Numbered from the stretch's first letter, positions 1 to 20,129 are shown. The stretch is DNA of 64,000 bases from Fidelibacterota bacterium (GCA_014381855.1 JACNKV010000115.1:7886-71885), one strand, 5' to 3'. The notes: generated by a model from the letters alone, not told the origin. Made by a program: numbers and translations.

Positions 1-225
1 CCTTTACCTGTAGCAGGTTTAATGACTGATACGGACGGATATTTTGTTGCAGAAAAATATTCTGCATTGGAAACCATGGCAAAAGAAATGGGGTCTCCAT
101 TGCAATCTCCATTTATGACGCTATCGTTTATGGCATTGTTAGTCATTCCTCAGCTAAAACTTAGTGACAAAGGTTTGTTTGACGGGAATTCGTTTGAATT
201 AGTTCATAACTTTACCATCGAATAA
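1..225 (+). CDS. ade: adenine deaminase, C-terminal fragment (N-terminus upstream of window)
   Basis: Frame 1 is open from base 1 ([13 protein letters not shown]...) to the stop at 223-225. The tail [26 protein letters not shown] matches the conserved C-terminal signature of Ade/AdeC adenine deaminases as I recall it. Purine genes follow. Confidence 0.6.
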
Positions 226-229
226 AGCC

Positions 230-2503
230 ATGTCAGAACAAAACTATTATCATTACATTGGAACATCACACCTTCGTTCAGATGCTAAGGAAAAAACCAC
301 CGGAGAGACAAAGTTTTTAACGGATATTCCTGACAAAGGAATGCTCCATGCGGCACCGGTATATTCTTCGATTCCATTTGGTGAGACAATATCAATTGAC
401 GTTTCAGTAGCTGAATCTGTGCAAGGCTATGTTGATTTTATTTCAGCAAAGGATATCCCAGGGGAAAACCAGATTGGCGTCATTTTTCAGGATCAGCCCC
501 TATTTGCGGATAAAATCGTTCGGTATGTCGGTGACAGTATCGGTTTGGTCGTTGCAGAAACGTCAGAAGCCGCTTATTATGCTGCCCGTTTAATAAAGAT
601 AAAATACGAAGAGCATACACCGCTATTATCTATCGATGAAAGCAGAGATGCAGAAAACAATTTCATCCACGAAACGAACCTTGCATGCAAACACCGTGTA
701 CGTAAAGGAAATATTGAAATAGGTTTTAATACTGCAGATAAAATCGTAGAAGCCTCGTTTAAAACACCTTTCCAAGAGCATTATTATCTTGAACCTCAGG
801 GATGTATTGTTACTCCCGGAAACAACAGTAATGTTGAAATTGTCGGAACGCTACAATGTCCATTTTATATTCAAAAATCGGTTGCCAAAGTTTTAGGAGT
901 GAATCTGAAGAATGTTTCCGTCGAACAAGCTCCGACCGGAGGAGGCTTTGGAGGAAAAGAGGATATCCCTTCAGAATTAGCAGCTAGAGTTGCTGTTGCG
1001 GCAGTAAAATTGGGACGTACCATAAAAATGGTGTATCGCCGAAAAGAAGATGTGCAATTAACATCTAAACGTCATCCGTTTCAAATGCACTATAAAGTCG
1101 GGGTAAAAAATGACGGAACCTTAGTTGCCGCGGATATTCTATTAGAAGAAAATGCGGGTGCTTATGCGACTTTGTCATCCGTCGTTTCATATCGTGCTTC
1201 CGCTCAGGCAATGGGACCTTATATCATTCCGAATATTCACGTTGATTCAAATTCATACTACACAAATTTACCTCCGACCGGTGCTTTCCGTGGATTCGGA
1301 TCTCCTCAAGCTGCATTCGGGCATGAACGAATGATGGACGTAATCGCAGCAGAACTGAACATGGACCCCGTTGAAATAAGACTAAAAAACATTCTGAAAC
1401 CCGGTGATGCTACCATGACCGATCAGTCCTTACCCATAAGTGTTGGTGCGGAAGAAACGATTCGTAAGGCGGTAAAATCATCCAACTGGAATCATAAAAA
1501 CATTGAAGACGGAAGATATCTCCATGGGATGGGGATAAGCACCATTCATTATGGTAATTGCCTTGGAGCTGCCGGTTGGCATATGGATGGTTCCGCTGCC
1601 CGTATTCAGATACAAAGAGATGGTAAAATTACTGTTGCTTTCGGTTTAGTGGAAATGGGGCAGGGAGCTTTAACAGTTGTGAAACAGATGACGGCTGAAG
1701 CACTTGGAATTTCACCGGAACGAATTACCGTATTACCGACTTCAACAGAATATGTTCCAGACAGCGGACCTGCAGTAGCATCTCGAAATGTCGTAATGAC
1801 TGGAAATGCAATTCGTGACGCGGCGAAAAAACTTCTTCCGATTCTGAAGGATGCTGTAGCGGAACTCATGGAATGTAAACCAAATGATGTCGAGCTGACA
1901 AATGATCGTGTATTCTGTAGAGCTAATAATTCAGAACTCACATTTGAAGAATTGACAAATTATCTCTATATCACAAATCGTAAGACGGAAGAACTTGGTT
2001 GGTGGCATGTCCGTGAGTTAGAGTATAACAAGGATACTGGCATCGGAGAAGCTTACTTTACGTATTCTTATGCAACACATATCGCCAAAGTACGTGTCGA
2101 CAAACTTACAGGATTGGTCCATACTGATAAAATATGGGCGGCACACGATATTGGTAAAGCCATAAATCCTGCCGGGTTGGAGGGACAAATTGAAGGAGGG
2201 ACGGCTCAAGGTGTCGGTTGGGTTACGACGGAGAATTTTATAACCGATCGTGGAATTGTGCAGACAGAAAATCTTTCGACCTATCTTTTGCCGACTGCAA
2301 CCGATGTCCCTGATGTCGAATCCATCATCGTTGAAGACCCGGAACCCGAAGGTCCATGGGGTGCAAAGGGAATTGGTGAACCGGCAGTTATCCCGACCGG
2401 AGCGGCAATTGCTAATGCCGTCAGTAACGCGTTAGGCGTTCAGATGAATGAAATTCCCTTAACCCCGGAAAAAGTATTAAACATAATAATGAAAAACAAA
2501 TGA
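230..2503 (+). CDS. xanthine dehydrogenase/aldehyde oxidase family molybdopterin-binding large subunit
   Basis: 757 aa with an N-terminal a/b-hammerhead-like region. Motifs APTGGGFGGKED, FRGFGSPQ and C-terminal GPWGAKGIGEP are typical of Mo-hydroxylase large subunits. ATGA overlap with the next gene. Confidence 0.9.
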   Translation: MSEQNYYHYIGTSHLRSDAKEKTTGETKFLTDIPDKGMLHAAPVYSSIPFGETISIDVSVAESVQGYVDFISAKDIPGENQIGVIFQDQPLFADKIVRYVGDSIGLVVAETSEAAYYAARLIKIKYEEHTPLLSIDESRDAENNFIHETNLACKHRVRKGNIEIGFNTADKIVEASFKTPFQEHYYLEPQGCIVTPGNNSNVEIVGTLQCPFYIQKSVAKVLGVNLKNVSVEQAPTGGGFGGKEDIPSELAARVAVAAVKLGRTIKMVYRRKEDVQLTSKRHPFQMHYKVGVKNDGTLVAADILLEENAGAYATLSSVVSYRASAQAMGPYIIPNIHVDSNSYYTNLPPTGAFRGFGSPQAAFGHERMMDVIAAELNMDPVEIRLKNILKPGDATMTDQSLPISVGAEETIRKAVKSSNWNHKNIEDGRYLHGMGISTIHYGNCLGAAGWHMDGSAARIQIQRDGKITVAFGLVEMGQGALTVVKQMTAEALGISPERITVLPTSTEYVPDSGPAVASRNVVMTGNAIRDAAKKLLPILKDAVAELMECKPNDVELTNDRVFCRANNSELTFEELTNYLYITNRKTEELGWWHVRELEYNKDTGIGEAYFTYSYATHIAKVRVDKLTGLVHTDKIWAAHDIGKAINPAGLEGQIEGGTAQGVGWVTTENFITDRGIVQTENLSTYLLPTATDVPDVESIIVEDPEPEGPWGAKGIGEPAVIPTGAAIANAVSNALGVQMNEIPLTPEKVLNIIMKNK

Positions 2504-3819
2504 AGACACTCTTAACAAATTGCAGAATTGTAAATCCCTTTAGTAGTCCCGAATTCATTGAAAATGGATATATTTTGATTGAAAATGGTATTGTAGAAGT
2601 AATTAAAGAAGGAATCCCTAATTTTACTGTAGATGAAAAAATCGATTTAAACGGTAAAACCGTCCTTCCCGGAATGATAAATGCACATGCGCATTTATAT
2701 TCCACTTTAGCTATGGGAATGCCATTTCCGAAGGGAAATCCAACAAATTTCACCGAGATCTTGGAACAGGTCTGGTGGATTTTGGATCGAGCTTTGGATC
2801 GGGAAAGTACAAAAGCCTCCTTCGAAGCCGGTTTGCTTGACCACCTGCGTCATGGAGTAACAACAGTTATCGACCATCATTCCAGCCAAAACTATATTGA
2901 CGGTTCGTTGAATTTGTTAGCCGAAACAGCTAAGCAATTTGGCATGAATATCTCTGGTGCATTTGAAATGACCGACCGAAATGGCAAGCAAACCTTTCAA
3001 AACAGTTTGGACGAGAATATCACATTTCATCGTGAATTTATCGAGTATAAATCTGTACGTCCTCTCATAGGATTACACGCATCATTCACGCTTTCGGATG
3101 AATCGCTTAAAAGCATTTCTGACAGACTGAAGTCGGAACGTGATTGGGGAATCCATATTCATACTGCCGAAGACAAAGCTGACAGAACAGATTCAAAATC
3201 ACGCGGGTATAATTCAGTCATTCACCGTTTAGATTCATTTGATCTTTTGAATGAAAATAGTTTGGTGATTCATGGTGTGCATTTTGAGCCTGGTGATGTT
3301 GACATTCTGAAACGAACAGGAGCAATGCTAGTGCATAATCCGTCTTCAAATGCGAATAATCGCGTGGGGATGACCCCAACAGCGCTTATCGAAGAAATGC
3401 AAGCCGGATTAGGTACCGACGGAATGCAGGGAAATATGTTGGAAGAAGCAAAAATAGGAACATTGATTCGAAGTAGCCACCTAGTTGGTGGAGAACCCAG
3501 CGTAAATTATGCCGAAATGCTCTTTAAGCACAATGCGGATATCGCCACGAAATTATTTGGGCGCAAGATAGGAAAACTCGATCAGGGCTATGCTGCTGAC
3601 TTGGCGGTATTTGACTATAATCCACGAACTGAATTCAATGCGGATAATTGGATTGGACATGCGTTATTTGGAATGGAAGCACCAATTGATGTGATGACGA
3701 ATGGAATATTTAGAGTCAGAAATAATTCACTTATCGATCTTGATGAAAAATCGATTTTGACTAATGCGAATAAACAGGCAAATATCTTGTGGAATAATAT
3801 GGAAGAAACAGATGGTTAA
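2500..3819 (+). CDS. ssnA: putative aminohydrolase SsnA (amidohydrolase superfamily)
   Basis: 439 aa. Metal-binding NAHAHLYS, then QVWWILDRALDRES, VIDHHSSQNYIDGSL and EMTDRNG blocks that parallel E. coli SsnA (442 aa) as I recall it. Confidence 0.75.
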   Translation: MKTLLTNCRIVNPFSSPEFIENGYILIENGIVEVIKEGIPNFTVDEKIDLNGKTVLPGMINAHAHLYSTLAMGMPFPKGNPTNFTEILEQVWWILDRALDRESTKASFEAGLLDHLRHGVTTVIDHHSSQNYIDGSLNLLAETAKQFGMNISGAFEMTDRNGKQTFQNSLDENITFHREFIEYKSVRPLIGLHASFTLSDESLKSISDRLKSERDWGIHIHTAEDKADRTDSKSRGYNSVIHRLDSFDLLNENSLVIHGVHFEPGDVDILKRTGAMLVHNPSSNANNRVGMTPTALIEEMQAGLGTDGMQGNMLEEAKIGTLIRSSHLVGGEPSVNYAEMLFKHNADIATKLFGRKIGKLDQGYAADLAVFDYNPRTEFNADNWIGHALFGMEAPIDVMTNGIFRVRNNSLIDLDEKSILTNANKQANILWNNMEETDG

Positions 3820-3937
3820 GTGGAGTAAAAAAAGACAATGAACTCTCAATATTATTTGATAAATTTCCACGCTCTTTCTCGGGGCTTAATCAAGAACTGA
3901 GGGGCGTTCCAAAAGATCGAAAAGCGAGCACAATGTA

Positions 3938-3965: not shown

Positions 3966-4001
3966 AATAAATCTTCATTAACAAATATAAGGAGTAAAAC
4001 T

Positions 4002-4955
4002 ATGAGAAGTTTTGCAGGAAGAGATATACTCTCACTTAAGGACTTTGAACGAAATGAGTTTTTTAGAGTGTTCGATGTGGCCGATCGCCTAAGACACTTT
4101 GCCGAAGATCGAAAAAATACTGATTTGTTGGCAGGAAAAACACTTGTAACCGCATTTTATCAACCCAGCACACGCACACGCTTAGCACACGAAGCTGGCA
4201 TGCATCGCCTCGGCGGACATGTCACCGGTTTTTCCGATGCGAAAATGACTCGAGCCGGCGACTTTTATCAGGAGACAATTAAAGACACCGTCAAAATGTT
4301 GGAATTCTACGGTGACGTTATCGTTATGCGTCATTTCCAACAAGGTGCACCGCACGAAGCCGCTAAGTGGTCTTCTATTCCGATTATCAACGGTGGCGAT
4401 GGTTGGGGAGAACATCCGACACAAATTCTAACAGATCTTTATACTATTTACAAAGAAAAAGGACGTATTGACGGATTAAAATGGTTAGCCGTTGGTGATA
4501 TGAGAATGAGAACAATGCATTCATTGGCTCACGGTTTAACGCAATTTGATTGCCCGATTACGTTTGTTTCTCCACCTGATATGAGTATGACCGATGAATT
4601 CAAAAAGGATATTGAAAAATATAATCTAAACTACAAAGAAGCCGAGCATGTCGAAGAAGCGATCGCTGATGCTGATGTCATTTTAGTTGAACCAGTCGTT
4701 CAACCTGATTATACAAAAGCCAGAGATGAACGCTCCGGCGATGTTGGTTTGACTCCGTCAAATTATAAAATCACACGTGAGCTTCTTTCCACAAAAGCGA
4801 AATCTGACGCCATTCTGCTGCACTCACTTCCTCGCATGGATGAAATCCCTGCTGATGTGGATATCACACGCTGGTCACGCTACTGGCAGGAAGCTTTCAA
4901 CGGTGTCGTTATGCGTATGGCGCTCTTGGCATTAGTTCTTGGCACACAAGAGTAG
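4002..4955 (+). CDS. aspartate-carbamoyltransferase-like transcarbamylase with divergent second-substrate site
   Basis: 317 aa. It has the carbamoyl-phosphate motif PSTRTR, GEHPTQILTDL, and the C-terminal HSLPRMDEI that corresponds to PyrB HPLPRVDEI. The PyrB RVQKER region reads EPVVQPD. There is no pyrI neighbour. Confidence 0.7.
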   Translation: MRSFAGRDILSLKDFERNEFFRVFDVADRLRHFAEDRKNTDLLAGKTLVTAFYQPSTRTRLAHEAGMHRLGGHVTGFSDAKMTRAGDFYQETIKDTVKMLEFYGDVIVMRHFQQGAPHEAAKWSSIPIINGGDGWGEHPTQILTDLYTIYKEKGRIDGLKWLAVGDMRMRTMHSLAHGLTQFDCPITFVSPPDMSMTDEFKKDIEKYNLNYKEAEHVEEAIADADVILVEPVVQPDYTKARDERSGDVGLTPSNYKITRELLSTKAKSDAILLHSLPRMDEIPADVDITRWSRYWQEAFNGVVMRMALLALVLGTQE

Positions 4956-4966
4956 GAGGGAACATT

Positions 4967-5944
4967 ATGCAGACATATCTACGCGGTCGTGACATGATTA
5001 CGACCCAAGAATGGACACGTGAAGAAATTGATACTGTCATGGATGTCGCCATGGATTTAAAACGTAAACGCGCATTGGGTGAACCTCATGCGTATTTGCG
5101 TGATAAAGTCTTGGCGATGCTGTTTTTCTTCTCAAGCACACGTACTCGTGCGTCGTTTGAAGCCGGAATGGCTCAACTGGGCGGACATGCGATGTTCCTA
5201 GATAGCAAAACCACGCAGGTTTCTCACGGCGATACAGCAAAAGAGATTGGTGATATTCTAGGACGTTACAACGATGGATTAGCCATTCGTCAGGTGGATT
5301 GGGAACATGGGAATCAATATATCCGATGGGTTGCTGAAGCAAGCCGTACACCTGTTTTGAATATGCAGTGTGATGAGTATCATCCTCATCAGATTCTCGC
5401 GGACCTTCAGACAATCATAGAGAAAAAGGGCGATCCCCGAGGAAAAACTATCACTGTTAGCTGGGCATACGCTTCCAGCTATTCAAAACCGCAAAGTGTT
5501 CCGAACAGTCTAATCCTGCTCATGACACGCTACGGAATGAATGTACGTTTGGTTCATCCCCCGGAATTTAAGCTAAAATCAAAATTCATTGATCAAGCCA
5601 AGGAAAATGCCAAAAAACATCACGGTAGTTTTGTGATGATGGACGATTTTGAAGCAGGAGTCAAAGATACGGACATTTGGTATGCGAAAAGCTGGGGACC
5701 GATGCTCACAACGACTGATCCTGCAGAGGATAAGCGAATTACGGAAAAATACAGTGATTGGATCGCTGATGAACGTCGTTTAGCCATGGCAAAGCCTGAT
5801 GCAATCTACATGCACCCGTTACCTGCTGATCGCAATGTTGAAGTTACTGACGCCGTCCTCGACGGGCCAAATTCGGTTGTCTTTGATCAGGCAGAAAATC
5901 GTTTGCACGCTCAAAAAGCCGTCATGGCTTTGACAATGACCTAA
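4967..5944 (+). CDS. YgeW-like (knotted-type) carbamoyltransferase, short form
   Basis: 325 aa with motifs SSTRTRASFE, HPHQILADL, VSWAYASSYSKPQSVP, AKSWGP and YMHPLPADR. These resemble the YgeW blocks TWAYSPSYGKPLSVP, PKSWAP and YMHCLPAD that I recall. E. coli YgeW is longer at 396 aa. Confidence 0.6.
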   Translation: MQTYLRGRDMITTQEWTREEIDTVMDVAMDLKRKRALGEPHAYLRDKVLAMLFFFSSTRTRASFEAGMAQLGGHAMFLDSKTTQVSHGDTAKEIGDILGRYNDGLAIRQVDWEHGNQYIRWVAEASRTPVLNMQCDEYHPHQILADLQTIIEKKGDPRGKTITVSWAYASSYSKPQSVPNSLILLMTRYGMNVRLVHPPEFKLKSKFIDQAKENAKKHHGSFVMMDDFEAGVKDTDIWYAKSWGPMLTTTDPAEDKRITEKYSDWIADERRLAMAKPDAIYMHPLPADRNVEVTDAVLDGPNSVVFDQAENRLHAQKAVMALTMT

Positions 5945-6101: not shown

Positions 6102-7049
6102 ATGAAAAAGAAATTAGCAGTGATTGCCATTGGTGGTAATTCACTTATTCACGACAAACAGCACCAGACGGTGCGTGACCAATACATTGCCGCTCATGAG
6201 ACTTCGGAACATATCGTTTCGATGATTCGTGACGGCTGGGATGTTGCAATATCCCACGGAAATGGTCCGCAAGTTGGATTCATTTTACGCCGTTCAGAAT
6301 TAGCCTCTCACGAGTTGCATGAAGTTCCGCTGGATGTATGCGGTGCCGATAGTCAAGGTGCGATCGGATATGCTCTTCAGCAGAATTTATATAACGAATT
6401 TAAACGTTTTGGCATGGAGAAATACGTCACTACGGTGGTGACTCAGGTAGAAGTATCCGCAAATGATCCATCTTTCAAAGCTCCGGCAAAACCCATTGGA
6501 TCTTTTATGGATGAATCAGAAGCATCCCGTCGACGCGATAAAGAAGGCTGGGATGTGAAAGAGGATGCAGGGCGCGGATGGCGCCGGGTTGTTGCCTCTC
6601 CTAAACCGATCCGTATTGTAGAAGAACCAGCTGTAAAACAATTGTTAGATGCTGGTGTTGTAGTAATTACAACAGGTGGTGGTGGAATTCCGGTGGTCGC
6701 AGATGAAAATGGGCACCTTAGCGGTGTTGCAGCAGTAATTGATAAGGATTTCGCTTCTTCACTCCTGGCAAGCAACTTAGGTGCTGAATTGTTTGTTATG
6801 AGTACCGCCGTTGAGAAAGTCGCTTTAAACTTTGGTAAACCTAACGAAAAATGGCTGGATAAAATAACCTTGCAGGAAGCAAAAGGTTATCTCGCGGAAG
6901 GAACACATTTTGCTGCCGGAAGCATGGCGCCAAAGGTTGAGGCTGCGATTCTTTTCTTAGAAAACGGCGGGAAAGAAGTTGTCATTACCAACCCTGAAAA
7001 TCTTGAAAAAGCATTGGATGGAAAAACCGGAACTCATATCGTCCATTAA
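6102..7049 (+). CDS. arcC: carbamate kinase
   Basis: 315 aa. N-terminal KKLAVIAIGGNSL, SHGNGPQVG and TTGGGGIPV are typical of ArcC/YqeA carbamate kinases. Confidence 0.9.
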   Translation: MKKKLAVIAIGGNSLIHDKQHQTVRDQYIAAHETSEHIVSMIRDGWDVAISHGNGPQVGFILRRSELASHELHEVPLDVCGADSQGAIGYALQQNLYNEFKRFGMEKYVTTVVTQVEVSANDPSFKAPAKPIGSFMDESEASRRRDKEGWDVKEDAGRGWRRVVASPKPIRIVEEPAVKQLLDAGVVVITTGGGGIPVVADENGHLSGVAAVIDKDFASSLLASNLGAELFVMSTAVEKVALNFGKPNEKWLDKITLQEAKGYLAEGTHFAAGSMAPKVEAAILFLENGGKEVVITNPENLEKALDGKTGTHIVH

Positions 7050-8334: not shown

Positions 8335-8365
8335 ATACATAACGAAAAAATAAAGGAAATATCAT

Positions 8366-9892: not shown

Positions 9893-10375
9893 ATGCTCCA
9901 TATTGAAAATCCTGAATATTATACAATAACACTAACCGTAAACGGGAAGGAGCTGGAAAAATCCGTTCCTTCCCATATGCGACTACTTGATCTATTACGT
10001 AATGAACTGCATTTTACCGGCGCCAAAGAAGTCTGTTCAGAAGGAGAATGTGGTGCGTGTACTATTTTCATGGATAGCAAAACCGTTAATTCCTGTCTTA
10101 TACTTGCTGTCGAAGCCGATAAATCCGAAATAATCACCATTGAAGGCTTCCCAAAAGAAAATAGTCTTACCGAGCTGCAACAAGAGTTTATAGATCACCA
10201 CTCTGTTCAATGTGGGTATTGCATCCCGGGTATGGTGTTATCCGGTGAGCAGATTCTAAAGGATCATGAAAATCCTGACAGAATGGAAATCAAGAAGGAA
10301 TTATCAGGAAATATTTGCCGATGTACAGGCTATCATAAAATTGTGGATGCAATTGAACATGCAGGACACAAATAA
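9893..10375 (+). CDS. (2Fe-2S)-binding small subunit of a molybdenum hydroxylase (CoxS/XdhC/PucE-like)
   Basis: 160 aa. Both cluster motifs are intact: C48-x4-C53-x2-C56-x11-C68, then QCGYCIPGM and CRCTGY. Confidence 0.9.
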   Translation: MLHIENPEYYTITLTVNGKELEKSVPSHMRLLDLLRNELHFTGAKEVCSEGECGACTIFMDSKTVNSCLILAVEADKSEIITIEGFPKENSLTELQQEFIDHHSVQCGYCIPGMVLSGEQILKDHENPDRMEIKKELSGNICRCTGYHKIVDAIEHAGHK

Positions 10376-11294: not shown

Positions 11295-14200
11295 TAAGTT
11301 ATACCCAATGGAGTTAACCCACTTATTGAAGTGGATTCTTGAAGAAGAGAAACATGGAAGTATCTTTGGAGTCACGAAGGAACTGTTCTTCAATCCAAGT
11401 GAGCAAGATGTCTTTCGTATGAAACGTTACGGCCAGCTGATGGAAACTCCCATCGGTGTTGCTGCCGGACCTCATACCCAGATGGCTCAAAATATCATTT
11501 TAGCGTGGTTAATGGGCGCTAGGTACATTGAGCTTAAAACTATACAGACGCTGGATGAGCTGAAAGTCTCTAAACCCTGTATTGATATGCAGGATGAAGG
11601 CTACAATTGTGAATGGTCACAGGAACTTAAATTAAATCAGTCTTTCTCTGAATATTTAAATGCCTGGATTATCATTCATATCCTCAAAGATAAATTCGGA
11701 TGGGGGTATGATAAAGACTTGGGCGGGATATTTAATATGTCTGCCGGATATAATCTAGTCGGAATTAAAAAACCAAATGTTCAACAGTTCTTAGATTTGA
11801 TGGAGGATTGTCAGCCTAATCTTGATGATAGACTAAATAGCATCGAGCATATTTATCCGAATATAAAGAATCTAAGTATCCCGGCAAAATTATCGGATAA
11901 TCTCACGCTTTCAACCATGCACGGCTGTCCGCCGGATGAAATAGAATCGATCGGAAAATACCTGATAGAAGAACGTAAATATCACATGACTGTTAAACTG
12001 AATCCGACGCTTTTAGGACCTGATAAATTGAGAGAAATTCTTAACAATCGCCTTGGATTTAAAGAAGTCACTGTTCCTGATGAAGCGTTTAGTCATGACT
12101 TAAAATATTATGATGCTTTAAAACTGATCAAAAGTTTACAATCATCTGCGGAAAATAATGGTGTAGACTTTGGCTTAAAATTGACAAATACTCTTGAGGT
12201 AGAAAATCATAAACCAATTTTTCCGTCCAATGAAAAAATGATGTATATGAGCGGACGAGCACTACATCCGATTAGTATCCATGTCGCAGAGAAACTGCAA
12301 ACCGAATTCAATGGAAATCTGGATATTTCATTTTCCGCGGGAATGGATGCGTTCAATGTCGCTGATGTATTGGCAGCGAACATAAAACCGATTACCGTCT
12401 GTACTGACATCTTAAAACCAGGTGGATACACACGGTTAGCACAATATCTGTCCGAGATAAAAAAACAGTTTGCAGATACAAATGCATCCTCAATTGATGA
12501 ATTTATTTTGTCAAAAGACAACGCTGCAACTGATTTAAAAACAGCCGGATTAAACAATCTGAAATATTTTGCTGAGTCTGTTCTGAATCATGCCGCTTAT
12601 CACAAAGATATTAAGCATTTTGAATCCATTAAGACTCCGAGACCTCTTACTCGATATGACTGTGTTAAAGCGCCGTGCACTGAATCATGTGCCACAGATC
12701 AGGAAATTCCTGAGTATTTGCATCAGGTTGCAAACGGAAATTTCGACAAAGCTTATGAAACTATTTTAAGAACAAATGCAATGCCGGGCGTCACTGGTTA
12801 TGTCTGTGATCATCTTTGTCAAACCAAATGCACACGAAACAATTTAGACAGCACGTTATTAATACGTGAAATCAAAAGGTTTGCCACTGAAAATAATTCC
12901 GTTAAAACGCTAGTTTCTAAACCCTCCAACGGATTAAAAACCGCTGTCATCGGAGCTGGTCCTTCAGGGTTAACCTGTGCTTACTATCTAGCGCTTGAAG
13001 GATTTGAAGTTGATATTTACGAAGCTAAACCTTTTGCCGGAGGAATGGTATCTGATGCAATTCCCGGTTTTCGGCTTACCAACGATTCGATAAAGAATGA
13101 TATCGAATTAGTGAAATCTGTCGGGGTCAAATTCCATTTCAATTCAAGTATTGATAAAAATAGATTTAACGAATTACGATCAAATTATGATTATGTTTAT
13201 CTTGGAGCCGGTGCTCAAGATAACAAGAGATTGAATATCCAAGGAGAAGAATCATCAAACGTCATTGAACCTCTGACATTTTTATCTGATGTACGACAAG
13301 GAAACGTTAAGGAATTGGGTGAGCGTGTTGCTGTGATTGGGGGAGGAAACACAGCAATGGATGCCGCACGGACCTCACGCCGGTTAGGATCAGATGTAAC
13401 AATACTTTACCGCAGAACGATGAAAGAGATGCCGGCTGACATGGAAGAAATTGTAGCCGCGCTGGAGGAAGGTATCTATCTGCAGGAACTTGTTGCTCCT
13501 GAAAAGATTGCTGACGGTGGTGACGGACCTGCGATATTAACATGTTTCAAAATGGAATTGGGGAAACCGGATGAGAGCGGACGGGAACGCCCGATAAAAA
13601 TTGACGGTTCAGAGTTTGAACTTGCCTTCGATAAAATTATCCCGGCAGTCGGACAAGATATCGCATTGGACTATGTAACTTGGCAAGAATTGGTCCCTGA
13701 TAATGTGACCGGAGAAACAAAGCTGAAGAATGTTTTTGCCGGTGGGGATATTGTCCGCGGAGCTTCTTCCGTAATCAATGCCGTGGGAGATGGGCGTAAA
13801 GCCGCTGATAATATAATCCGTGCCGCTAAGTTGGATAATCATCATGCGCCAGATTCCTCATTGCGATTTGAAAAATTCGAATATCAAAAGAAATTAGCAT
13901 TAAGAGAATATGGAATTACCACACCGCATTTATCCCCGGATGAACGAATTAATTTTAATTTAGTAACAAGGACGCTTGCTAAAGAAGAAGCCATGGCAGA
14001 AGCCTCAAGGTGTCTCCAATGTGATGATGTTTGTGATGTTTGTGTAAGTGTATGTCCTAACTTAGCGAATATGTCATATATAGCCAGACGAAGAACCTAT
14101 CCTGTTTATCAATTATTGGCTAAAGATGATGGCGTGAATATTATACAAATTGATACATTCACAATCTCCCAAGAACCACAAATTATCAATATCGGTGACT

Positions 14201-14559
14201 TTTGTAATGAATGCGGAAATTGTACAACTTTCTGTCCGACGGCGGGTGATCCGTATAAAACGAAGCCCAAATTCTTTCTGAATGGAGAAACCTTTGATGC
14301 AGAAGAAAATGGATATTGGATGGATGGAAATACACTTTTCTCAAAAATGGATGGCATACAATCATCACTCAATTTAACAGAAGGGAATTACAGGTATAAA
14401 TCAGATATTATTAATATTAAAATGGATTCATCTAATTATGAAATAATTTCAGCTCAATTCTTAAATGGAAAAAGTGAAATGCAATCATCCGATATAACAG
14501 AAATGATTGTATTATTTGAAAACATGAAAGATTATCCATTATTTAATACGGACAAATAA
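11287..14559 (+). CDS. ygfK: YgfK-like multidomain Fe-S flavoprotein oxidoreductase (annotated elsewhere as putative selenate reductase subunit YgfK)
   Basis: 1090 aa. The N-terminus PMELTHLLKWILEEEKHGSIFGV parallels E. coli YgfK. Domain order is a DPD-like barrel region, a GltD-like Cys cluster, the dinucleotide folds VIGAGPSGLTCAYYL and VIGGGNTAMDAAR, then C-terminal ferredoxin motifs CLQCDDVCDVCVSVCP and CNECGNCTTFCP. Confidence 0.85.
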   Translation: MSDKLYPMELTHLLKWILEEEKHGSIFGVTKELFFNPSEQDVFRMKRYGQLMETPIGVAAGPHTQMAQNIILAWLMGARYIELKTIQTLDELKVSKPCIDMQDEGYNCEWSQELKLNQSFSEYLNAWIIIHILKDKFGWGYDKDLGGIFNMSAGYNLVGIKKPNVQQFLDLMEDCQPNLDDRLNSIEHIYPNIKNLSIPAKLSDNLTLSTMHGCPPDEIESIGKYLIEERKYHMTVKLNPTLLGPDKLREILNNRLGFKEVTVPDEAFSHDLKYYDALKLIKSLQSSAENNGVDFGLKLTNTLEVENHKPIFPSNEKMMYMSGRALHPISIHVAEKLQTEFNGNLDISFSAGMDAFNVADVLAANIKPITVCTDILKPGGYTRLAQYLSEIKKQFADTNASSIDEFILSKDNAATDLKTAGLNNLKYFAESVLNHAAYHKDIKHFESIKTPRPLTRYDCVKAPCTESCATDQEIPEYLHQVANGNFDKAYETILRTNAMPGVTGYVCDHLCQTKCTRNNLDSTLLIREIKRFATENNSVKTLVSKPSNGLKTAVIGAGPSGLTCAYYLALEGFEVDIYEAKPFAGGMVSDAIPGFRLTNDSIKNDIELVKSVGVKFHFNSSIDKNRFNELRSNYDYVYLGAGAQDNKRLNIQGEESSNVIEPLTFLSDVRQGNVKELGERVAVIGGGNTAMDAARTSRRLGSDVTILYRRTMKEMPADMEEIVAALEEGIYLQELVAPEKIADGGDGPAILTCFKMELGKPDESGRERPIKIDGSEFELAFDKIIPAVGQDIALDYVTWQELVPDNVTGETKLKNVFAGGDIVRGASSVINAVGDGRKAADNIIRAAKLDNHHAPDSSLRFEKFEYQKKLALREYGITTPHLSPDERINFNLVTRTLAKEEAMAEASRCLQCDDVCDVCVSVCPNLANMSYIARRRTYPVYQLLAKDDGVNIIQIDTFTISQEPQIINIGDFCNECGNCTTFCPTAGDPYKTKPKFFLNGETFDAEENGYWMDGNTLFSKMDGIQSSLNLTEGNYRYKSDIINIKMDSSNYEIISAQFLNGKSEMQSSDITEMIVLFENMKDYPLFNTDK

Positions 14560-15965
14560 TGAAAACACTGTTAATTAAAAACCCGCTGTCTGTTGCCACC
14601 ATGAATGATTCGAAAGAAGAGTTCAATGGCGGACATATTTTGATTGAGGGTAATACAATTAAATCCATTGGTCCAGCAGAAATCAGCGTGAATGCCGATG
14701 AGGTGATAGATGCAACAGGAATGGTCGTGCTTCCCGGTTTTATTAACACACATCATCATTTATATCAAACGCTGACTAGGAATATTCCGTTGATGCAGAA
14801 TCAACCATTATTTAGTTGGCTGACCAATCACTATGAGGTATGGCGTGAATTGACTGAGGAAGCCGTTACTGTCAGTACAACAGTCGGTTTGCTGGAGCTG
14901 ATGAAATCTGGAACGACCACAAGTTCTGATCATTTGTACTTATTTCCGAATAAAATTTCCGGGAAACTCATTGATGCAGAAATAGAGAGTGCAAAACATT
15001 TGGGCATGCGCTTTCAACCGACGCGCGGTTCTATGTCTCTGGGAAAATCTCAGGGAGGATTACCACCGGATGGCACCGTCCAGACTGAAGCAGAAATCCA
15101 ACAAGATTCTGAACGCCTCATAAACACTTATCACGACGCTTCTGATGGTGCGATGGTTCGCATATCACTGGCACCATGTTCACCGTTTTCTGTTACACCG
15201 GAGTTAATGAGATCCACTGCAGAGTTCGCAATGTCCAACGATATTCAAATGCACACCCATCTTGCTGAGACCATCGATGAGGAAAATTTCTGCGTAGAGG
15301 AATTTGGAGAGCGTCCGGCTGCGTATGTTGATAGCTTAGGCTGGATGAATCCGAAAGCCTGGTTTGCTCATGCGATCCACCTGAACGATGAAGAGATCAA
15401 ACGAATGGCGGATACGGGCGCAGGTATGACCCATTGCCCGACATCTAATATGCGTTTGGGAAGCGGTATTGCACGTATAAAGGAAATGATGGATGCGAAT
15501 GTCCGCGTTAGCATTGGTGTAGATGGTTCTGCGTCCAACGATGCAGGGAATATGCTAATGGAAATCCGAAATGCCATGATGCTTTCACGGTTACGCGATG
15601 AAGAGTATTGGCTGACAGCACAAGATGTCTTGTGGCTGGCAACACGTGGCGGTGCTTCGGTTTTGGGCAGGGATGATATCGGTCAGCTTTCGGTGGGTAA
15701 ACAGGCGGACTTAGCCCTTTTCTCAATGGATAAACTTGAATACGCCGGGGGGATGTCGGATCCGGTGGCGGCATTGATATTCAATGTTCGCACTTCACCG
15801 GTGGATTATTTAATCATCAATGGTAAACTACAAGTTAGAAACGGCAAAACAAGCACAAATGAATCTTCCTTAATTCATGTTCATAATAAAATTGCTGAGA
15901 GAATGATTTCTCAAGCAACGAAAAAAACCGGAATAAACTTCTACAGCAGTCGCAAAGACCATTAA
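14559..15965 (+). CDS. COG0402-type amidohydrolase (8-oxoguanine/guanine deaminase or chlorohydrolase-like)
   Basis: 468 aa. Motifs FINTHHHLYQTLTR, HTHLAET and CPTSNMRLGSGIA, plus VDGSASND. The TAATG junction with ygfK suggests coupling. Confidence 0.7.
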   Translation: MKTLLIKNPLSVATMNDSKEEFNGGHILIEGNTIKSIGPAEISVNADEVIDATGMVVLPGFINTHHHLYQTLTRNIPLMQNQPLFSWLTNHYEVWRELTEEAVTVSTTVGLLELMKSGTTTSSDHLYLFPNKISGKLIDAEIESAKHLGMRFQPTRGSMSLGKSQGGLPPDGTVQTEAEIQQDSERLINTYHDASDGAMVRISLAPCSPFSVTPELMRSTAEFAMSNDIQMHTHLAETIDEENFCVEEFGERPAAYVDSLGWMNPKAWFAHAIHLNDEEIKRMADTGAGMTHCPTSNMRLGSGIARIKEMMDANVRVSIGVDGSASNDAGNMLMEIRNAMMLSRLRDEEYWLTAQDVLWLATRGGASVLGRDDIGQLSVGKQADLALFSMDKLEYAGGMSDPVAALIFNVRTSPVDYLIINGKLQVRNGKTSTNESSLIHVHNKIAERMISQATKKTGINFYSSRKDH

Positions 15966-16094: not shown

Positions 16095-16859
16095 ATGTGG
16101 AATTCAATAAATTCGGTCGTTAAACCAAAAACATTAACCGAAGCATATTCCTTGGTTGACGGAAAGCATGTTGTACTTTTTGGAGGTGGGAGTTATTTAG
16201 TCTCAGAAAAGGATGAAACTATACATACATTGGTTGATATTAATAGTTTAGTTAATAATACGATCAAAGCTGATGTTGAAGGTGTCATCATAGGAGGAGG
16301 CGCAACACTGCAAGCCTTTATAAATACAGTGACCACTGTCAATCCTGATTGTCGGTTAATTGACGGATGCAGATATGCCTGTCCGTCTAAGAATATCCGT
16401 AACCAACGGACGTTCGGCGGAGAACTCGGGAAAGGTCGTTGTGATTCAGATATATTAGTATTTTTAAATGCCGTAAATGCCGATATAACAGTTGTTGCGG
16501 AAAGCAAAAAAACAGAAAGCATTCGTAATTGGGACGGAAGAGGAATTGTAACACAGATCGAATATATTCCAAACAATATTGAAGGGGTGGAACTAATGAG
16601 GTCTGCAAGAATTCCTTCTGCGCCGTCAGTCGTTAGTGTTTGTGCAATTAAAAAGAAGGATTATTTTGATATCAGTATCGGCGGTAAATGCTCAGAAATT
16701 CAAACTTTTTCTGTCCCGGAGGAAAAATGGAATAATACTGAAATAAAAACGATAAGTTCAAAAGTAGTAAGATGTTTTTCTGATGACCAATATGGTTCGC
16801 TTGATTACAAGCATATTCTCATTGAAACGTTGATTAATAGATCAGGGAGTACCCTATGA
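16095..16859 (+). CDS. ygfM: YgfM-like FAD-binding subunit
   Basis: 254 aa (E. coli YgfM is 259 aa). LFGGGSYL and NQRTFGGELG motifs of the FAD_binding_5 fold. It sits directly upstream of the XdhD-type genes. Confidence 0.65.
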   Translation: MWNSINSVVKPKTLTEAYSLVDGKHVVLFGGGSYLVSEKDETIHTLVDINSLVNNTIKADVEGVIIGGGATLQAFINTVTTVNPDCRLIDGCRYACPSKNIRNQRTFGGELGKGRCDSDILVFLNAVNADITVVAESKKTESIRNWDGRGIVTQIEYIPNNIEGVELMRSARIPSAPSVVSVCAIKKKDYFDISIGGKCSEIQTFSVPEEKWNNTEIKTISSKVVRCFSDDQYGSLDYKHILIETLINRSGSTL

Positions 16860-17317
16860 TAGGATTTTATTTAAACGGAAAACCGGTTTTTGGGGAATTC
16901 AATCCGGGAACAACATTGTTCGATTATCTCAGAGATCAGGAAATATTCAGCGTTAAATTTGGTTCTGAAAAAGGGGAAACCGGAGCAGATTCAGTATTAC
17001 TTGACGGTAAGGTCATGAATTCTTCGCTCTTGTTAATGCATACGATAGATGGAAAAGTCATTGAAACGATCGAATCATTTTCGCAGGGAGTTGACGTTCA
17101 TCCTTTGCAGGAAGCATTTATCGAAGAAGGAGCCGTCCAATGCGGCTATTGCACCCCGAGTATGATTTTAGCCGCAGAATCGCTTTTACGTGAGAATCCC
17201 ACCCCAAATGATGATTATGTGCGAGAGAGCCTTTCCGGCGTTTATTGCCGTTGCACAGGATTCGTAAAACCCATACAGGCGATTATGAAGTACGCTACAT
17301 CACGGGAGGATCGATAA
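16856..17317 (+). CDS. 2Fe-2S-type small subunit of the XdhD-like hydroxylase with a degenerate first cluster site
   Basis: 153 aa. The second cluster motifs QCGYCTPSM and CRCTGF are present. The four first-cluster Cys positions are S37, T42, D45 and S57. Overlaps both neighbours (ATGA and TAATG). Confidence 0.8.
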   Translation: MIGFYLNGKPVFGEFNPGTTLFDYLRDQEIFSVKFGSEKGETGADSVLLDGKVMNSSLLLMHTIDGKVIETIESFSQGVDVHPLQEAFIEEGAVQCGYCTPSMILAAESLLRENPTPNDDYVRESLSGVYCRCTGFVKPIQAIMKYATSREDR

Positions 17318-19602
17318 TGAAGGTGATTGGTCAAAAAACAAAACGTGTCGATGGGCTTGGGTTAGTCAAAGGAAAACCCGTATTTGCTGACGATGTGCCG
17401 AAGAAAGATTTTCTATATTTAAAAATCCTTCGAAGTCCGTTTGCTCATGCAAAAATAACATCAATAGATTATTCAAAAGCGTTAGAAGTAGAGGGAGTCG
17501 ACCTTGTATTGACGCACGAAGATTTTAAACCAATTTACTACACAACTGCCGGACAAGGCGCACCGGAACCCTCTCCGCATGACACATTGGTTTTGGATTC
17601 TACCGTCCGATTTGTCGGCGATCGCGTTGCCGTAGTGGCAGGTGAAACTTTGGAAGCTGCCGAAAAAGCAACGCGCTTAATCGAAGTGAAATATGAGGAA
17701 CTGCCGGCAATTTTTGATATCGAAAAGTCTATCGGGAATCAAACATTAATTCATCCGGATAAAGAGGGGTTTAGTTTTGTTTTTGATCCAAAGAACAACA
17801 TTGCTGCGAATATCGATGAAGAACTGGGTGATGTTGAAAAAGCGTTGTCCGAATCAGAATTTGTTTTTAAAAATACCTACTCAACTCCCTATGCCCAACA
17901 TGCGCATATTGAACCGCATATATCACTATCTTGGTTGGACGAGAATGACCGGATCGTCATCCGTACAGCAACTCAGGTTCCGCATCATGTTCGCCGAATC
18001 GTGGCGGAAGTATTAGATATTCCTATTGCTAAGATCAGAGTGATCAAGCCACGTATCGGAGGCGGATTTGGTTCCAAGCAAGAAATTATCGGGGAGGAAT
18101 TAGTCGCTGCCGTCACTTTACGAACAGGGAGACCTGCACGTTTAGAGTACACCCGTGAGGAAGAATTCACCGCTGCCCGTTCACGGCATCCTCAAAAAGT
18201 GACCTTCAGTATCGGTTTGGACAAAAACTTATTCATTAACGCGATCGATATGGAAATTCTCCAAAATTCGGGTGCCTATGGACCGCATGCACTAACAGTT
18301 ATGTCCGTTTCCGCCAGTAAAACCTTGGCACTCTACAAATCTTTGAATGTGCGGATAAAGGCGAATTCTGTGTATACAAATTTACCGCCTGCAGGTGCTT
18401 ACCGCGGATATGGCGCTCCCCAAGGATTTTTCGCCCTGGAATCGATGATGGATGAAATTGCAAATGACTTAAATGTCAATCCGATAGAGTTTCGAGAGAA
18501 AAACTATTTCCAAGAAGGGGATGAAGTCCCGATTGCTAAGGTATTAGGAGAGGGCCGTGAAGGATTTCCAGTCATTTTATATACCTCCGGTGTGCGTGAA
18601 TGTATTGTTGAAGGAAAACAACTTATCGACTGGAATACGTTAAGAGTATCGGAGAAAACCGGCATTCACCGTCGTGGTGTGGGTATAGCGACGGTTGCTC
18701 AGGGGTCAGGAATTGCCGGAATCGATATGGGGGCTGCCTACATCAAAATGAATGAGGACGGCAGTTTTAATCTTAATATTGGTGCAACGGATCTGGGAAC
18801 CGGTTCGGATACAGCAATGGCTCAGATTGCGGCAGAGATCCTTGAAGTACCTGTTGAAAAAATCATTGTTTATTCTTCTGACACAGATTTAACACCGTTC
18901 GATACAGGCGCTTATGCATCAAGCACGACGTTTATCACCGGTGGTGCTGTTATAAAAGCATCTGAAGACATTCGAAATCAAATTCTTGATCAAGGCATGA
19001 AACTTTTGGATGTAGAGGAGGCAGTAATAAAAGACAATTATGTTGTAGCTGCAAATGATGATAAAATCTCCTATCAAGATATTTGTACAAAATCATTTTA
19101 TACTGACCATCAAAAACAAATCCAAGCCGTATCCTCGCACATGAGTTATGACAGTCCTCCGCCGTATAATGCGACATTTGCGGATGTTACAGTCGACACT
19201 GAAACCGGATTTGTGACGGTGAATAAAATTGTCTCAGTTACGGATGCCGGCAGAATAATCAATCCGCAGATGTCGGAGGGTCAAGTCGAAGGAGCAATTC
19301 CGCAATCCCTGGGAATGGCATTATCGGAATTTATGATATTCGATGAGAAGGGGAGACCAGTCAATCGAGATTTTGGGACATACAATATTTATACAGCGAT
19401 TGATATGCCGGAGATTGTCACTAAGTTTATTCACACCGATGAACCGACTGGCCCGTTTGGTGCCAAGGCGGTAGCGGAAATTCCAACCAATGGACCTGCG
19501 CCGGCTGTGGTAAATGCAATCTATAACGCCTGCGGTGTACGTATTAGAAACCTTCCGATTACTCCTGAAAAAATACTGCGCGGATTAGGGAAACTTAAAT
19601 AA
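17317..19602 (+). CDS. xdhD: XdhD-like molybdopterin-binding subunit (possible selenium-dependent Mo hydroxylase)
   Basis: Start chosen at ATG 17317 (MKVIGQKTKRVDG), which overlaps the upstream stop. The track ORF starts 72 nt earlier, inside the FeS gene. TAGQGAPEPSPHD...VRFVGDRVAVVAGE parallels E. coli XdhD PGGQSAPEPSPLD...HVGDRVAAVVAE. RIGGGFGSKQE and GPFGAKAVAEIP motifs are present. Confidence 0.85.
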   Translation: MKVIGQKTKRVDGLGLVKGKPVFADDVPKKDFLYLKILRSPFAHAKITSIDYSKALEVEGVDLVLTHEDFKPIYYTTAGQGAPEPSPHDTLVLDSTVRFVGDRVAVVAGETLEAAEKATRLIEVKYEELPAIFDIEKSIGNQTLIHPDKEGFSFVFDPKNNIAANIDEELGDVEKALSESEFVFKNTYSTPYAQHAHIEPHISLSWLDENDRIVIRTATQVPHHVRRIVAEVLDIPIAKIRVIKPRIGGGFGSKQEIIGEELVAAVTLRTGRPARLEYTREEEFTAARSRHPQKVTFSIGLDKNLFINAIDMEILQNSGAYGPHALTVMSVSASKTLALYKSLNVRIKANSVYTNLPPAGAYRGYGAPQGFFALESMMDEIANDLNVNPIEFREKNYFQEGDEVPIAKVLGEGREGFPVILYTSGVRECIVEGKQLIDWNTLRVSEKTGIHRRGVGIATVAQGSGIAGIDMGAAYIKMNEDGSFNLNIGATDLGTGSDTAMAQIAAEILEVPVEKIIVYSSDTDLTPFDTGAYASSTTFITGGAVIKASEDIRNQILDQGMKLLDVEEAVIKDNYVVAANDDKISYQDICTKSFYTDHQKQIQAVSSHMSYDSPPPYNATFADVTVDTETGFVTVNKIVSVTDAGRIINPQMSEGQVEGAIPQSLGMALSEFMIFDEKGRPVNRDFGTYNIYTAIDMPEIVTKFIHTDEPTGPFGAKAVAEIPTNGPAPAVVNAIYNACGVRIRNLPITPEKILRGLGKLK

Positions 19603-19649
19603 TTTCGACCCTATTAAGGATTGATTTCTCAACAAGTTGGTAAAATAAT

Positions 19650-20129
19650 ATGGAAAATAATAAACAGACTAAGTATTTTAATGTGAGCTGGCAAGAATTG
19701 CATCGGGATGCACGTGCATTAGCATGGCGTTTACTTTCTAAAAAAGAGTGGAAAGGAATAGCCGCTATTACACGAGGCGGACTTGTCCCTGCAGCTATTG
19801 TATCAAGAGAGTTAGATATTCGCGTTATAGATACAATCTGCGTTGCGACGTATGACCGTCAAATTATCGGAAAACCCAAATTATTAAAAGGGATTGATCA
19901 CGATGGAGAAGGATGGCTCTTGATTGATGATTTGGTGGATACCGGAACAACGGCTCAAATTGCACGAGATATCTTTCCAAAAGCACATTTTGCGACCATC
20001 TATGCAAAACCAGAAGGTCGTCCTTTGGTCGATACATTTATCACTGAAGTAAGTCAGGATACATGGATTCAATTTCCATGGGATATGGTATCGGATTATG
20101 CCGTGCCGTTGGCTGAACAAAATAGTTGA
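19650..20129 (+). CDS. gpt: xanthine-guanine phosphoribosyltransferase
   Basis: 159 aa. [38 protein letters not shown] and [10 protein letters not shown] closely parallel E. coli Gpt. Confidence 0.9.

Follow-up and report, generated by a model that had tools for sequence, protein, structure and literature searches.

Gene content and order of the locus

The window analysed here is a stretch of 64,000 nucleotides (nt) from a Fidelibacterota bacterium (GCA_014381855.1, JACNKV010000115.1:7886-71885). It opens with a tightly packed run of 16 co-directional plus-strand genes at positions 1-20129, which reads with reasonable probability as an operon for anaerobic purine breakdown that follows the known reductive urate route with a different back end. 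Overlapping junctions lie at 2500-2503, 11287-11294, 14559, 16856-16859, and 17317. Protein families were assigned by NCBIfam and Pfam scans, and comparison with E. coli was made by pairwise BLAST and by tblastn with E. coli proteins. A first-pass annotation of the same DNA had given the open reading frames (ORFs), strand, positions, and families correctly but had counted 17 genes in this interval instead of 16 (Table 1).

Table 1. Genes of the purine operon and the reading frame that follows it, with window positions, strand, and principal matches (bit scores, against model cut-offs where two values are given; PLP, pyridoxal 5'-phosphate; XDH, xanthine dehydrogenase; ATCase, aspartate carbamoyltransferase; Mo, molybdenum; FAD, flavin adenine dinucleotide)
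Gene and assignment	Position	Strand	Principal match
Adenine deaminase, 3' end	1..225	+	PF13382 Adenine_deam_C, 81 bits
Mo1, XDH molybdopterin subunit	230..2503	+	below cut-off in all models; pucD / XdhA top
SsnA-like amidohydrolase	2500..3819	+	NF005540 420 vs 444; TIGR03314 383 vs 455.5
ATC_317, ATCase-derived carbamoyltransferase	4002..4955	+	TIGR00670 257.1 > 236.95
OTC_325, short YgeW-like carbamoyltransferase	4967..5944	+	under cut-off of every NCBIfam model
Carbamate kinase, YqeA/ArcC type	6102..7049	+	NF009007 408 > 266; TIGR00746 376 > 358
PLP_416, threonine-synthase-like, fold-type II	7084..8334	+	PF00291 254 bits; NF006050 306 vs 303
PLP_488, CysK/TrpB-like PLP enzyme	8366..9832	+	weak cysK-type matches
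FeS1, XDH 2Fe-2S subunit	9893..10375	+	XdhC_XDHase 186 bits; E. coli XdhC 40%
FAD1, XDH FAD subunit	10464..11294	+	XdhB_XDHase 177 bits; E. coli XdhB 30%
YgfK, Fe-S flavoenzyme	11287..14559	+	TIGR03315 927.7 > 835.3
AH_468, 8-oxoguanine deaminase orthologue	14559..15965	+	NF006055 629 > 532
FAD2, FAD-domain subunit in YgfM position	16095..16859	+	PF00941 49 bits; TIGR03312 30.8 vs 241.5
FeS2, 2Fe-2S part of split XdhD	16856..17317	+	matches XdhD N-terminus, TIGR03313 positions 1-147
Mo2, Mo part of split XdhD-type enzyme	17317..19602	+	best E. coli match XdhD
Gpt, xanthine-guanine phosphoribosyltransferase (salvage branch)	19650..20129	+	NF006613 246 > 138
Alpha/beta-hydrolase-like ORF, TTG start, overlaps gpt stop codon	20126..21199	+	marginal Pfam: S9, BD-FAE, Abhydrolase_2

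The arrangement is not a product of chance. All 16 genes stand in the same order on two further contigs from Marinimicrobia (L092 and L093), with protein identities of 50-97%, and gpt occupies the same place in L093. Conservation of the order among relatives had been named as a check in the first-pass annotation, which had also given the lineage as of the Fibrobacterota-Chlorobiota-Bacteroidota (FCB) type with a type IX secretion system (T9SS). The window encodes PorV and a T9SS C-terminal sorting domain, and a protein 100% identical to PLP_488 is deposited as Candidatus Marinimicrobia. Rfam models detected no purine, xanthine, or 8-oxoguanine riboswitch in the window or the locus upstream of it, their lone match being a tRNA at 27620-27694, and promoter and terminator scans were no better than shuffled controls (61 vs 52±8 and 11 vs 16±4, respectively).

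Redox enzymes and base deaminases

The YgfK/SsnA/XdhD-type core of the reductive urate pathway, proposed in the first-pass annotation, is present in this FCB-superphylum genome. YgfK is 37% identical to its E. coli namesake over 1069 amino acids (aa), and the SsnA-like protein finds its best E. coli match in SsnA (35.6% over 433 aa, 227 bits vs 74 for GuaD). The order YgfK, amidohydrolase, FAD2, FeS2, Mo2 mirrors ygfK-ssnA-ygfM-xdhD of E. coli. The same order is found in a Desulfobacteraceae contig (L038), in which an AH_468 orthologue occupies the ssnA slot and XdhD is a fused protein of 959 aa (58% to E. coli).

The two Mo subunits differ in their affinities. Mo1 is closest to E. coli XdhA (30.5%), carries the motifs GGGFGGKE, FRGFG, and GEP (equivalents of bovine E802, R880, and E1261), and is without the XdhD insertion; Mo1, FeS1, and FAD1 are read as a putative canonical xanthine dehydrogenase. 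Mo2 matches XdhD better than XdhA (530 vs 460 bits) and has the XdhD-specific insertion, where its motif LGEGR aligns with GAIGE606GK of E. coli in the multiple alignment. This insertion is missing from XdhA, Mo1, and all Mo1-like proteins, and Glu606 of XdhD has been proposed to orient urate (Li et al. 2025, PMC12507026). FAD2 resembles the YgfM-like protein of L038 and E. coli YgfM weakly (23-25%, its best matches) and holds the position of ygfM in both. FAD2, FeS2, and Mo2 are thus read as a putative split XdhD-YgfM, with Mo2 as the predicted urate to 2,8-dioxopurine reductase. Mo1 and SsnA genes also adjoin in SAR324, Desulfobacteraceae, Terriglobia, and Chloroflexota loci (L028, L047, L061, L083, and L100, and in L066 bar one unassigned ORF between them), so the roles given to the two Mo enzymes are not certain. 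Mo2 most likely starts at ATG 17317, which lies behind GGGAGG, overlaps the FeS2 stop (TAATG), and fits both the homology start and the length of 760-768 aa in relatives. The mechanically called TTG 17245, inside FeS2, was discarded as the poorer fit.

AH_468, described earlier as a COG0402 amidohydrolase, was correctly placed in that family and can be specified further as an orthologue of 8-oxoguanine deaminase. It exceeds the equivalog cut-off of NF006055 (Table 1) and aligns end to end with PDB 3HPA and 7WW2 (E 2e-134, about 1e-134). Its gene overlaps ygfK by 1 nt and stands in the ssnA slot, as it does in L038 and L028. An AH_468-like gene precedes the triad of ATC_317-type, OTC_325-type, and carbamate kinase genes in 18 of 80 metagenome loci, and in L176 its immediate neighbours are adenine deaminase and a GntR regulator. 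The simpler reading is that AH_468 would act as a base deaminase alongside adenine deaminase, bringing guanine-derived purines to urate or xanthine. Unlike the known 8-oxoguanine deaminases, its gene is translationally coupled to ygfK within a purine catabolic operon, which suggests a role as a catabolic funnel rather than in disposal of damaged bases.

Carbamoyltransferases and carbamate kinase of the five-gene module

Between the SsnA-like gene and FeS1 lies a module of five genes encoding ATC_317, OTC_325, carbamate kinase, PLP_416, and PLP_488. The kinase is 52% identical to E. coli YqeA, its best match. OTC_325 is 32.6% identical to E. coli YgeW and falls under the cut-off of every ornithine carbamoyltransferase (OTC) model; AKSWGPM stands in place of the ornithine motif DxxxSMG. 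With YgeW it has in common NxQCDxxHPxQ and Y[PA]KSW[AG], and it is without the 16-residue YgeW insertion. Its motifs and alignment make it best described as a short YgeW-like clade.

OTC_325 orthologues fall into two subtypes (seen in L008, L009, L011, L012, L013, L023, L025, L026, L029, and L030): those with YAKSWG[PA] and HPLPA have an ATCase-like neighbour, and those with YPKSWGC and HCLPA an M20 hydrolase neighbour. The subtypes could reflect different substrates, a different order of action, or phylogeny alone.

In ATC_317 the carbamoyl-phosphate site is intact, with STRTR, HPTQ, and the arginines of IVMRH and RTMH all retained. The 80s-loop KKGE of ATCase (Lys84) is replaced by (F/W)YQE, and TRxQKER (TRVQKER; Arg229, Gln231) by an 8-residue insertion followed by TK[AS]R[DQ]ER. 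Neither change varies among nine orthologues, although the exact residue correspondence depends on the aligner. A scan of metagenome contigs anchored on ATC_317 gave at least 585 matches. An OTC_325-type gene lies directly 3' of the ATC_317-type gene in 62 of the 63 loci with room for it, and carbamate kinase is at most three genes away in 45 of 47; by these associations ATC_317 appears to be a dedicated member of the module and not a stray pyrB.

The slot upstream of OTC-kinase-PLP-PLP is occupied in Anaerolineae by an M20 YgeY-like hydrolase, which suggests that ATC_317 may do the job of YgeY phosphorolytically. Strict mutual exclusion of the two was considered and dropped: the PLP_488-anchored loci described below gave 7 with ATC_317-type against 13 with M20 and one with both, but in the ATC_317-anchored scan M20 sometimes precedes ATC.

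The PLP pair

PLP_416 has a Cys-rich N-terminal segment and an SFKDR lysine motif. It fails both YgeX models (69 vs 276 and 54 vs 532) and passes two threonine synthase models, NF006050 narrowly and TIGR00260 clearly (199 vs 167). PLP_488 is a protein of 488 aa with a C-terminal extension of about 100 aa and reaches 91 bits against the 351 required by cysK models. Since K107 (the Schiff-base lysine), the STGN carboxylate-binding loop, the TGSAGT glycine-rich phosphate loop, and the serine of GIS353 are all invariant, its sequence marks it as a putatively competent beta-family PLP enzyme. It has no close curated family or solved structure. An AlphaFold2 model built from an 18-sequence alignment has a mean predicted local distance difference test (pLDDT) score of 60.8, with residues 101-211 below 50.

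That these genes are housekeeping pyrB, argF, thrC, and cysK caught by chance inside a purine oxidation and salvage cluster is highly improbable. ATC_317 does exceed TIGR00670 (257 > 237) and PLP_416 barely exceeds a threonine synthase model (306 > 303), but ATC_317 is without the 80s-loop lysines and TRxQKER, OTC_325 is without DxxxSMG, and PLP_488 stays far below the cysK cut-off. The five genes also travel together across phyla and are far better conserved, within Marinimicrobia and between phyla, than the redox genes next to them. In view of their context and site motifs, the NCBIfam names "aspartate carbamoyltransferase" (4002-4955) and "threonine synthase" (7084-8334) are probably wrong for these clades, and public genomes are then mis-annotated.

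Distribution and conservation of the module

The PLP_488 family comprises at least 8000 clusters at 90% identity, with at least 74% identity among the matches listed. It occurs in at least 593 species-representative genomes and is 67-85% identical across phyla. Most hosts are Chloroflexota (Anaerolineae), and others are Desulfobacterales, SAR324, Terriglobia, Acidimicrobiia, Myxococcota, Halanaerobiales, Spirochaetaceae, and Burkholderiaceae. The non-canonical accessory enzymes noted in the first-pass annotation are therefore present but not peculiar to this island, as the module is found in hundreds of genomes in other phyla.

Proteins of the window and of E. coli were mapped onto 83 loci from many phyla anchored on PLP_488. 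The ThrC-like PLP_416 was the most frequent companion with 56 loci (56-57 when counted as next to PLP_488), followed by carbamate kinase with 31, OTC_325-type with 24, and HyuA-like proteins with 22. XDH subunits, YgeY-like M20, and SsnA occurred in 17, 14, and 11 loci, while ATC_317-type, YgfK, and true YgeW occurred in 8-10, 7, and 3, respectively, and YgeX in none. As module counts come from two scans, one anchored on PLP_488 and one on ATC_317, anchoring bias is possible. Called genes on other contigs give the orders Bmp ABC (ATP-binding cassette), XDH, MFS (major facilitator superfamily), PALP, PALP, and GntR, M20, OTC, carbamate kinase, PALP, PALP.

OTC_325-type and true YgeW were never found in one locus (24 vs 3 loci). 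Where true YgeW is present (three loci, 66-69% to E. coli), the PLP pair is retained together with YgeY, and this points to the PLP pair standing in specifically for YgeX and OTC_325 for YgeW. The possibility that another conserved gene lies within the PLP pair or behind it was considered and rejected, the intervening ORFs being unrelated (a glycosyltransferase, a metallo-beta-lactamase (MBL)-fold protein, an alcohol dehydrogenase, and an alpha/beta hydrolase). Seven loci of about 21 kb (L021, L036, L040, L053, L062, L082, and L084) have PLP_488 without PLP_416 or a recognisable purine-pathway gene; the family may not be confined to the purine pathway, or its partners may be dispersed.

Two further observations concern the neighbourhood of the module. 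In an Anaerolineales locus (L030), two PydA/UacX-like ORFs of the dihydropyrimidine dehydrogenase type (12220-13131 and 16440-17726) occur besides YgfK and SsnA and beside the ATC-OTC-kinase-PLP module. In several Anaerolineae modules, a small gene for a "23S rRNA intervening sequence protein" (PF05635) lies between M20 and OTC or between OTC and carbamate kinase genes (L008:6116-6478, L009:6214-6576, and L096:553-1080).

The distribution bears on whether the module might degrade another ureido compound (an intermediate of pyrimidine reduction or of allantoin or oxalurate breakdown, albizziin, or a citrulline-like compound) and be merely co-located with purine oxidation genes. A carbamoyltransferase with carbamate kinase is a general ATP-yielding motif, many Anaerolineae modules are accompanied by GntR and M20 alone with no XDH, SsnA, or YgfK within 10 kb, and L030 has the PydA-like genes as well. 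We nevertheless hold this explanation to be unlikely, because in several phyla the module lies beside XDH, SsnA, YgfK, HyuA, adenine deaminase, 8-oxoguanine deaminase, or Bmp nucleoside-type importers, and OTC_325 has the substrate-site motifs of YgeW and is mutually exclusive with it. No uricase, allantoinase, or allantoicase genes were seen. Fold-type II PLP enzymes are, moreover, not known to act on substrates of the type of pyrimidine-derived beta-alanine, which counts against this explanation too.

The five module proteins are 83-97% identical within Marinimicrobia and 65-87% to other phyla, compared with 50-80% and 30-57%, respectively, for the redox and hydrolase proteins. The identities place the module under what appears to be much stronger constraint than the redox genes. 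Recent horizontal transfer was rejected as a needed cause of the 65-87% identity across phyla, as these five also evolve most slowly when Marinimicrobia are compared with one another. The shift in GC content at the module is small (0.42-0.45 vs about 0.40), and lateral transfer may contribute to its spread.

Upstream genes and missing canonical partners

The region before window position 1 was viewed through an exact-protein look-up, which led to six metagenome contigs (L001-L006) reaching 8.1-8.4 kb beyond the window start. Co-directional with the operon, they encode a porin-like protein, a Bmp-family binding protein, an ABC ATPase, two permeases (porin to permeases at L001:425-6682), and the full adenine deaminase (558 aa on the source contigs; TIGR01178 633 > 472 on L001). 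The porin-like protein of 471 aa has a signal peptide and ends in YLF, with a terminal Phe, and has no Pfam or NCBIfam match; by these features it looks like an outer-membrane porin. Together with the Bmp-type ABC importer it is probably the uptake system of the operon. The absence of a purine permease stated in the first-pass annotation thus holds inside the window but not for the locus. All six contigs end 90-425 nt 5' of the porin-like gene, which suggests a repeat or strain-variable region that breaks assemblies there.

With E. coli queries, tblastn found no ygeY, hyuA, yqeB, yqeC, mocA, xanQ, ghxQ, uacT, or selD in the 64 kb or upstream, and YgeX gave a 25% local match to PLP_416 and nothing else. 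The absence of YgeX, YgeY, HyuA, and selD/yqeB/yqeC/mocA from the window was as first reported. A canonical ygeX-ygeY-hyuA set does not lie just upstream either, where the porin, the importer, and adenine deaminase are found instead. SelD, YqeB, and YqeC were also missing at significant coverage from the PLP_488-anchored loci, except for a fragmentary 29% YqeB-like ORF in L073.

The lack of HyuA in the window and the 8.4 kb upstream raises the possibility that hydantoinase is bypassed, with the ring opened differently by the SsnA-like protein, AH_468, or the alpha/beta hydrolase after gpt, and with intermediates that need unusual transferases and PLP enzymes. The place of AH_468 in the ssnA slot behind ygfK, with its 1-nt overlap and the same slot in L038 and L028, would fit such a bypass, as would the observation that AH_468-type and HyuA are never together in PLP_488-anchored loci (3 vs 22 loci, both in 0). 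However, AH_468 is closely orthologous to 8-oxoguanine deaminases of defined structure and biochemistry and scores above the equivalog cut-off, its relative adjoins adenine deaminase in L176, and the alpha/beta hydrolase has no counterpart in related loci. A bypass is therefore quite unlikely in our estimate, and AH_468 as a replacement for HyuA was largely rejected on the same two grounds, the close match and the adenine deaminase neighbour. As HyuA homologues accompany the same PLP and transferase module in 22 of the 83 loci, HyuA is more likely to be encoded elsewhere in the genome. Of the earlier suggestion that ring opening and C3 processing may differ from the described pathway, the late C3 steps by different enzymes were borne out and a different ring opening was not indicated.

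Proposed pathway

In the published route, XdhD-YgfM reduces urate to 2,8-dioxopurine and YgfK then reduces the ring (Li et al. 2025, PMC12507026). SsnA opens the ring to ureidomethyl-hydantoin, and HyuA forms 2,3-diureidopropionate. YgeW with phosphate frees one ureido group as carbamoyl phosphate, from which YqeA makes ATP, while YgeY takes the second ureido group and YgeX turns diaminopropionate into pyruvate. The route requires two ureido cleavages and a diaminopropionate lyase, and the order of ureido cleavage is disputed in the literature.

For the present operon, purines or nucleosides would enter through the upstream porin and the Bmp-type ABC importer. Adenine deaminase would yield hypoxanthine, Mo1/FeS1/FAD1 would oxidise hypoxanthine and xanthine to urate, and 8-oxoguanine deaminase would channel guanine-derived bases to urate or xanthine. 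The split XdhD-type FAD2/FeS2/Mo2 would reduce urate to 2,8-dioxopurine, YgfK would reduce the ring, and the SsnA-like hydrolase would open it. A hydantoinase step, its gene not in the operon, would lead to 2,3-diureidopropionate. The hypoxanthine route would be redox-neutral, with XDH releasing four electrons and XdhD and YgfK consuming four.

The module would then complete the breakdown. The YgeW-like OTC_325 would remove one ureido group with phosphate and ATC_317 the second, presumably the alpha-N-carbamoyl (2-ureido) group, as this is the bond type handled by ATCases. The single carbamate kinase would turn both carbamoyl phosphates into ATP, giving two ATP per purine and not one. In the place of YgeX, PLP_416 and PLP_488 together would convert 2,3-diaminopropionate to pyruvate and ammonia, perhaps as a heteromer, perhaps by racemisation and elimination of a proposed D-configured intermediate, or perhaps by sequential replacement and elimination. 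We tentatively propose, at somewhat less than even probability, that the module is an unrecognised, fully phosphorolytic back end with two ATP per purine and a new two-enzyme PLP system, which would make purine fermentation an energy source for uncultured environmental lineages.

The direct evidence for this pathway consists of the genes present, their orthologous or nearly orthologous relations, altered motifs, and conserved co-occurrence, and several points weigh against it. Among the five core models named in the first-pass annotation, TIGR03315 for YgfK is the sole one to pass its trusted cut-off (928 > 835). The SsnA-like protein falls slightly short of both SsnA models, NF005540 and TIGR03314 (383 < 455), and the other three models fail as well: TIGR03313 for Mo2 (624 vs 1101.9, with the gene split), TIGR03312 for FAD2 (31 < 241), and TIGR03316 for OTC_325 (164 vs 500), which also fails the YgeW model NF005538 (171 vs 453). 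With four core models under cut-off, orthology must rest on the best E. coli matches, synteny, and signature motifs. Mo2 has Arg at the bovine R880 position, where XdhD of E. coli and L038 has Gln. HyuA gave no tblastn match in the window or in the upstream locus L001 (72 kb of context), and the window is without selenium-cofactor genes, although these are reported to be universal in gut strains with the pathway. ATC_317-type and M20 occur together in L057 (1 of 83 loci), and distant M20 genes (34-39% to YgeY) precede ATC in L145, L157, L158, and L177. About one long locus in four has PLP_488 without PLP_416 or any pathway gene in its vicinity. The model does not account for a second PLP enzyme, as YgeX is sufficient by itself, and every substrate assignment in the module is inferred from sequence and context.

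Comparison with known systems

The reductive urate clusters of E. coli and Clostridium sporogenes/difficile (PMC12507026, 10.1101/2025.04.24.650524) have in common with this operon YgfK, an SsnA-type protein, and an XdhD-type enzyme with its FAD partner in the same order, as well as carbamate kinase, a YgeW-related carbamoyltransferase, and co-located XDH and base deaminases. In contrast to the E. coli cluster (ygeW-ygeX-ygeY-hyuA-yqeA ... ygfK-ssnA-ygfM-xdhD), XdhD is here split into FeS and Mo genes and has the XdhA-like Arg. Compared with the E. coli and Clostridium clusters, two other fold-type II PLP enzymes are found for YgeX, an ATCase-derived transferase for YgeY, and a shorter clade without the 16-residue insertion for YgeW. 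The examined locus has no HyuA, YqeB/YqeC/MocA/SelD, or UacT/XanQ genes, and a porin and Bmp ABC importer serve for uptake. The host belongs to a free-living FCB-superphylum lineage and is not a gut anaerobe.

Published variants of the cluster have UacX for YgfK, UacY for YgeW and YqeA, and an F420-dependent reductase in Chloroflexota (Li et al. 2025, PMC12507026). The principle is the same, modular enzyme swaps that alter the redox carrier or the energy yield, while a PLP pair for YgeX with an ATCase-like protein for YgeY is described in neither Li et al. 2025 nor Liu et al. 2025. Threonine-synthase-like, cysteine-synthase-like, or ATCase-like members are not mentioned in PMC12507026 or 10.1101/2025.04.24.650524, the two sources compared, and full-text literature searches likewise turned up no description of the module. 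The neighbourhood analysis of Li et al. 2025 counts every member of PF00291 as "YgeX" and every member of PF00185 as "YgeW" (PMC12507026), and such whole-Pfam colouring would merge the present variant with the canonical cluster. The phyla with SsnA listed in the pathway papers and a commentary on them are Pseudomonadota, Bacillota, Chloroflexota, Actinomycetota, Spirochaetota, and Elusimicrobiota. The arginine deiminase pathway, with its catabolic ornithine carbamoyltransferase and carbamate kinase, shares with the module ureido phosphorolysis to carbamoyl phosphate and substrate-level ATP formation, as predicted here, but the operon has no arginine deiminase, its transferases are without ornithine or aspartate site motifs, and there are two of them per kinase.

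The reductive urate pathway was worked out in 2025 and described as a trait of gut or host-associated anaerobes. The operon places a recognisable form of it in free-living Marinimicrobia, where a module stands in for three characterised enzymes and annotation by curated models hides the pathway. The main value of the finding would lie in linking purine catabolism to an orphan PLP family of large size and to a carbamoyltransferase that is mis-annotated, with a doubled ATP yield as the prediction. If the proposal holds, the variant doubles the substrate-level ATP yield and a very large and very conserved orphan PLP family gains a function, and the PLP pair possibly represents new chemistry or stereochemical handling of D-configured intermediates. 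Since one transferase descends from an alpha-N-carbamoyl enzyme and the other from YgeW, the variant could also help to settle the order of cleavage, and it would bear independently on the question of which ureido group is the target of each enzyme class. Purine fermentation would then feed abundant uncultured Marinimicrobia, Anaerolineae, Desulfobacterales, and SAR324 and not gut bacteria alone, and adenine or hypoxanthine would be a self-contained fermentable substrate in anoxic waters and sediments.

Genes downstream of the operon

The alpha/beta-hydrolase-like ORF behind gpt has no homologue in the 83 related loci, and its membership in the purine system is uncertain. The genes downstream of gpt are otherwise of the housekeeping kind and include two glyceraldehyde-3-phosphate dehydrogenase (GAPDH) paralogues, CutA, a K+ channel, leucyl-tRNA synthetase, DprA, Obg, and monomeric isocitrate dehydrogenase. 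The GAPDH-family paralogues (343 and 333 aa) stand in tandem at 21292-23321 on the same strand directly 3' of the purine operon and overlap by 4 nt. No Pfam family matches two minus-strand ORFs of 540 and 408 aa (33777-35399 and 59095-60321) at E <= 1e-5. At 44252-47185 lies a gene for a Peptidase_MA-like protein of 977 aa, and PorV of the T9SS adjoins a 922-aa protein with a Por_Secre_tail sorting domain at 47185-51330.

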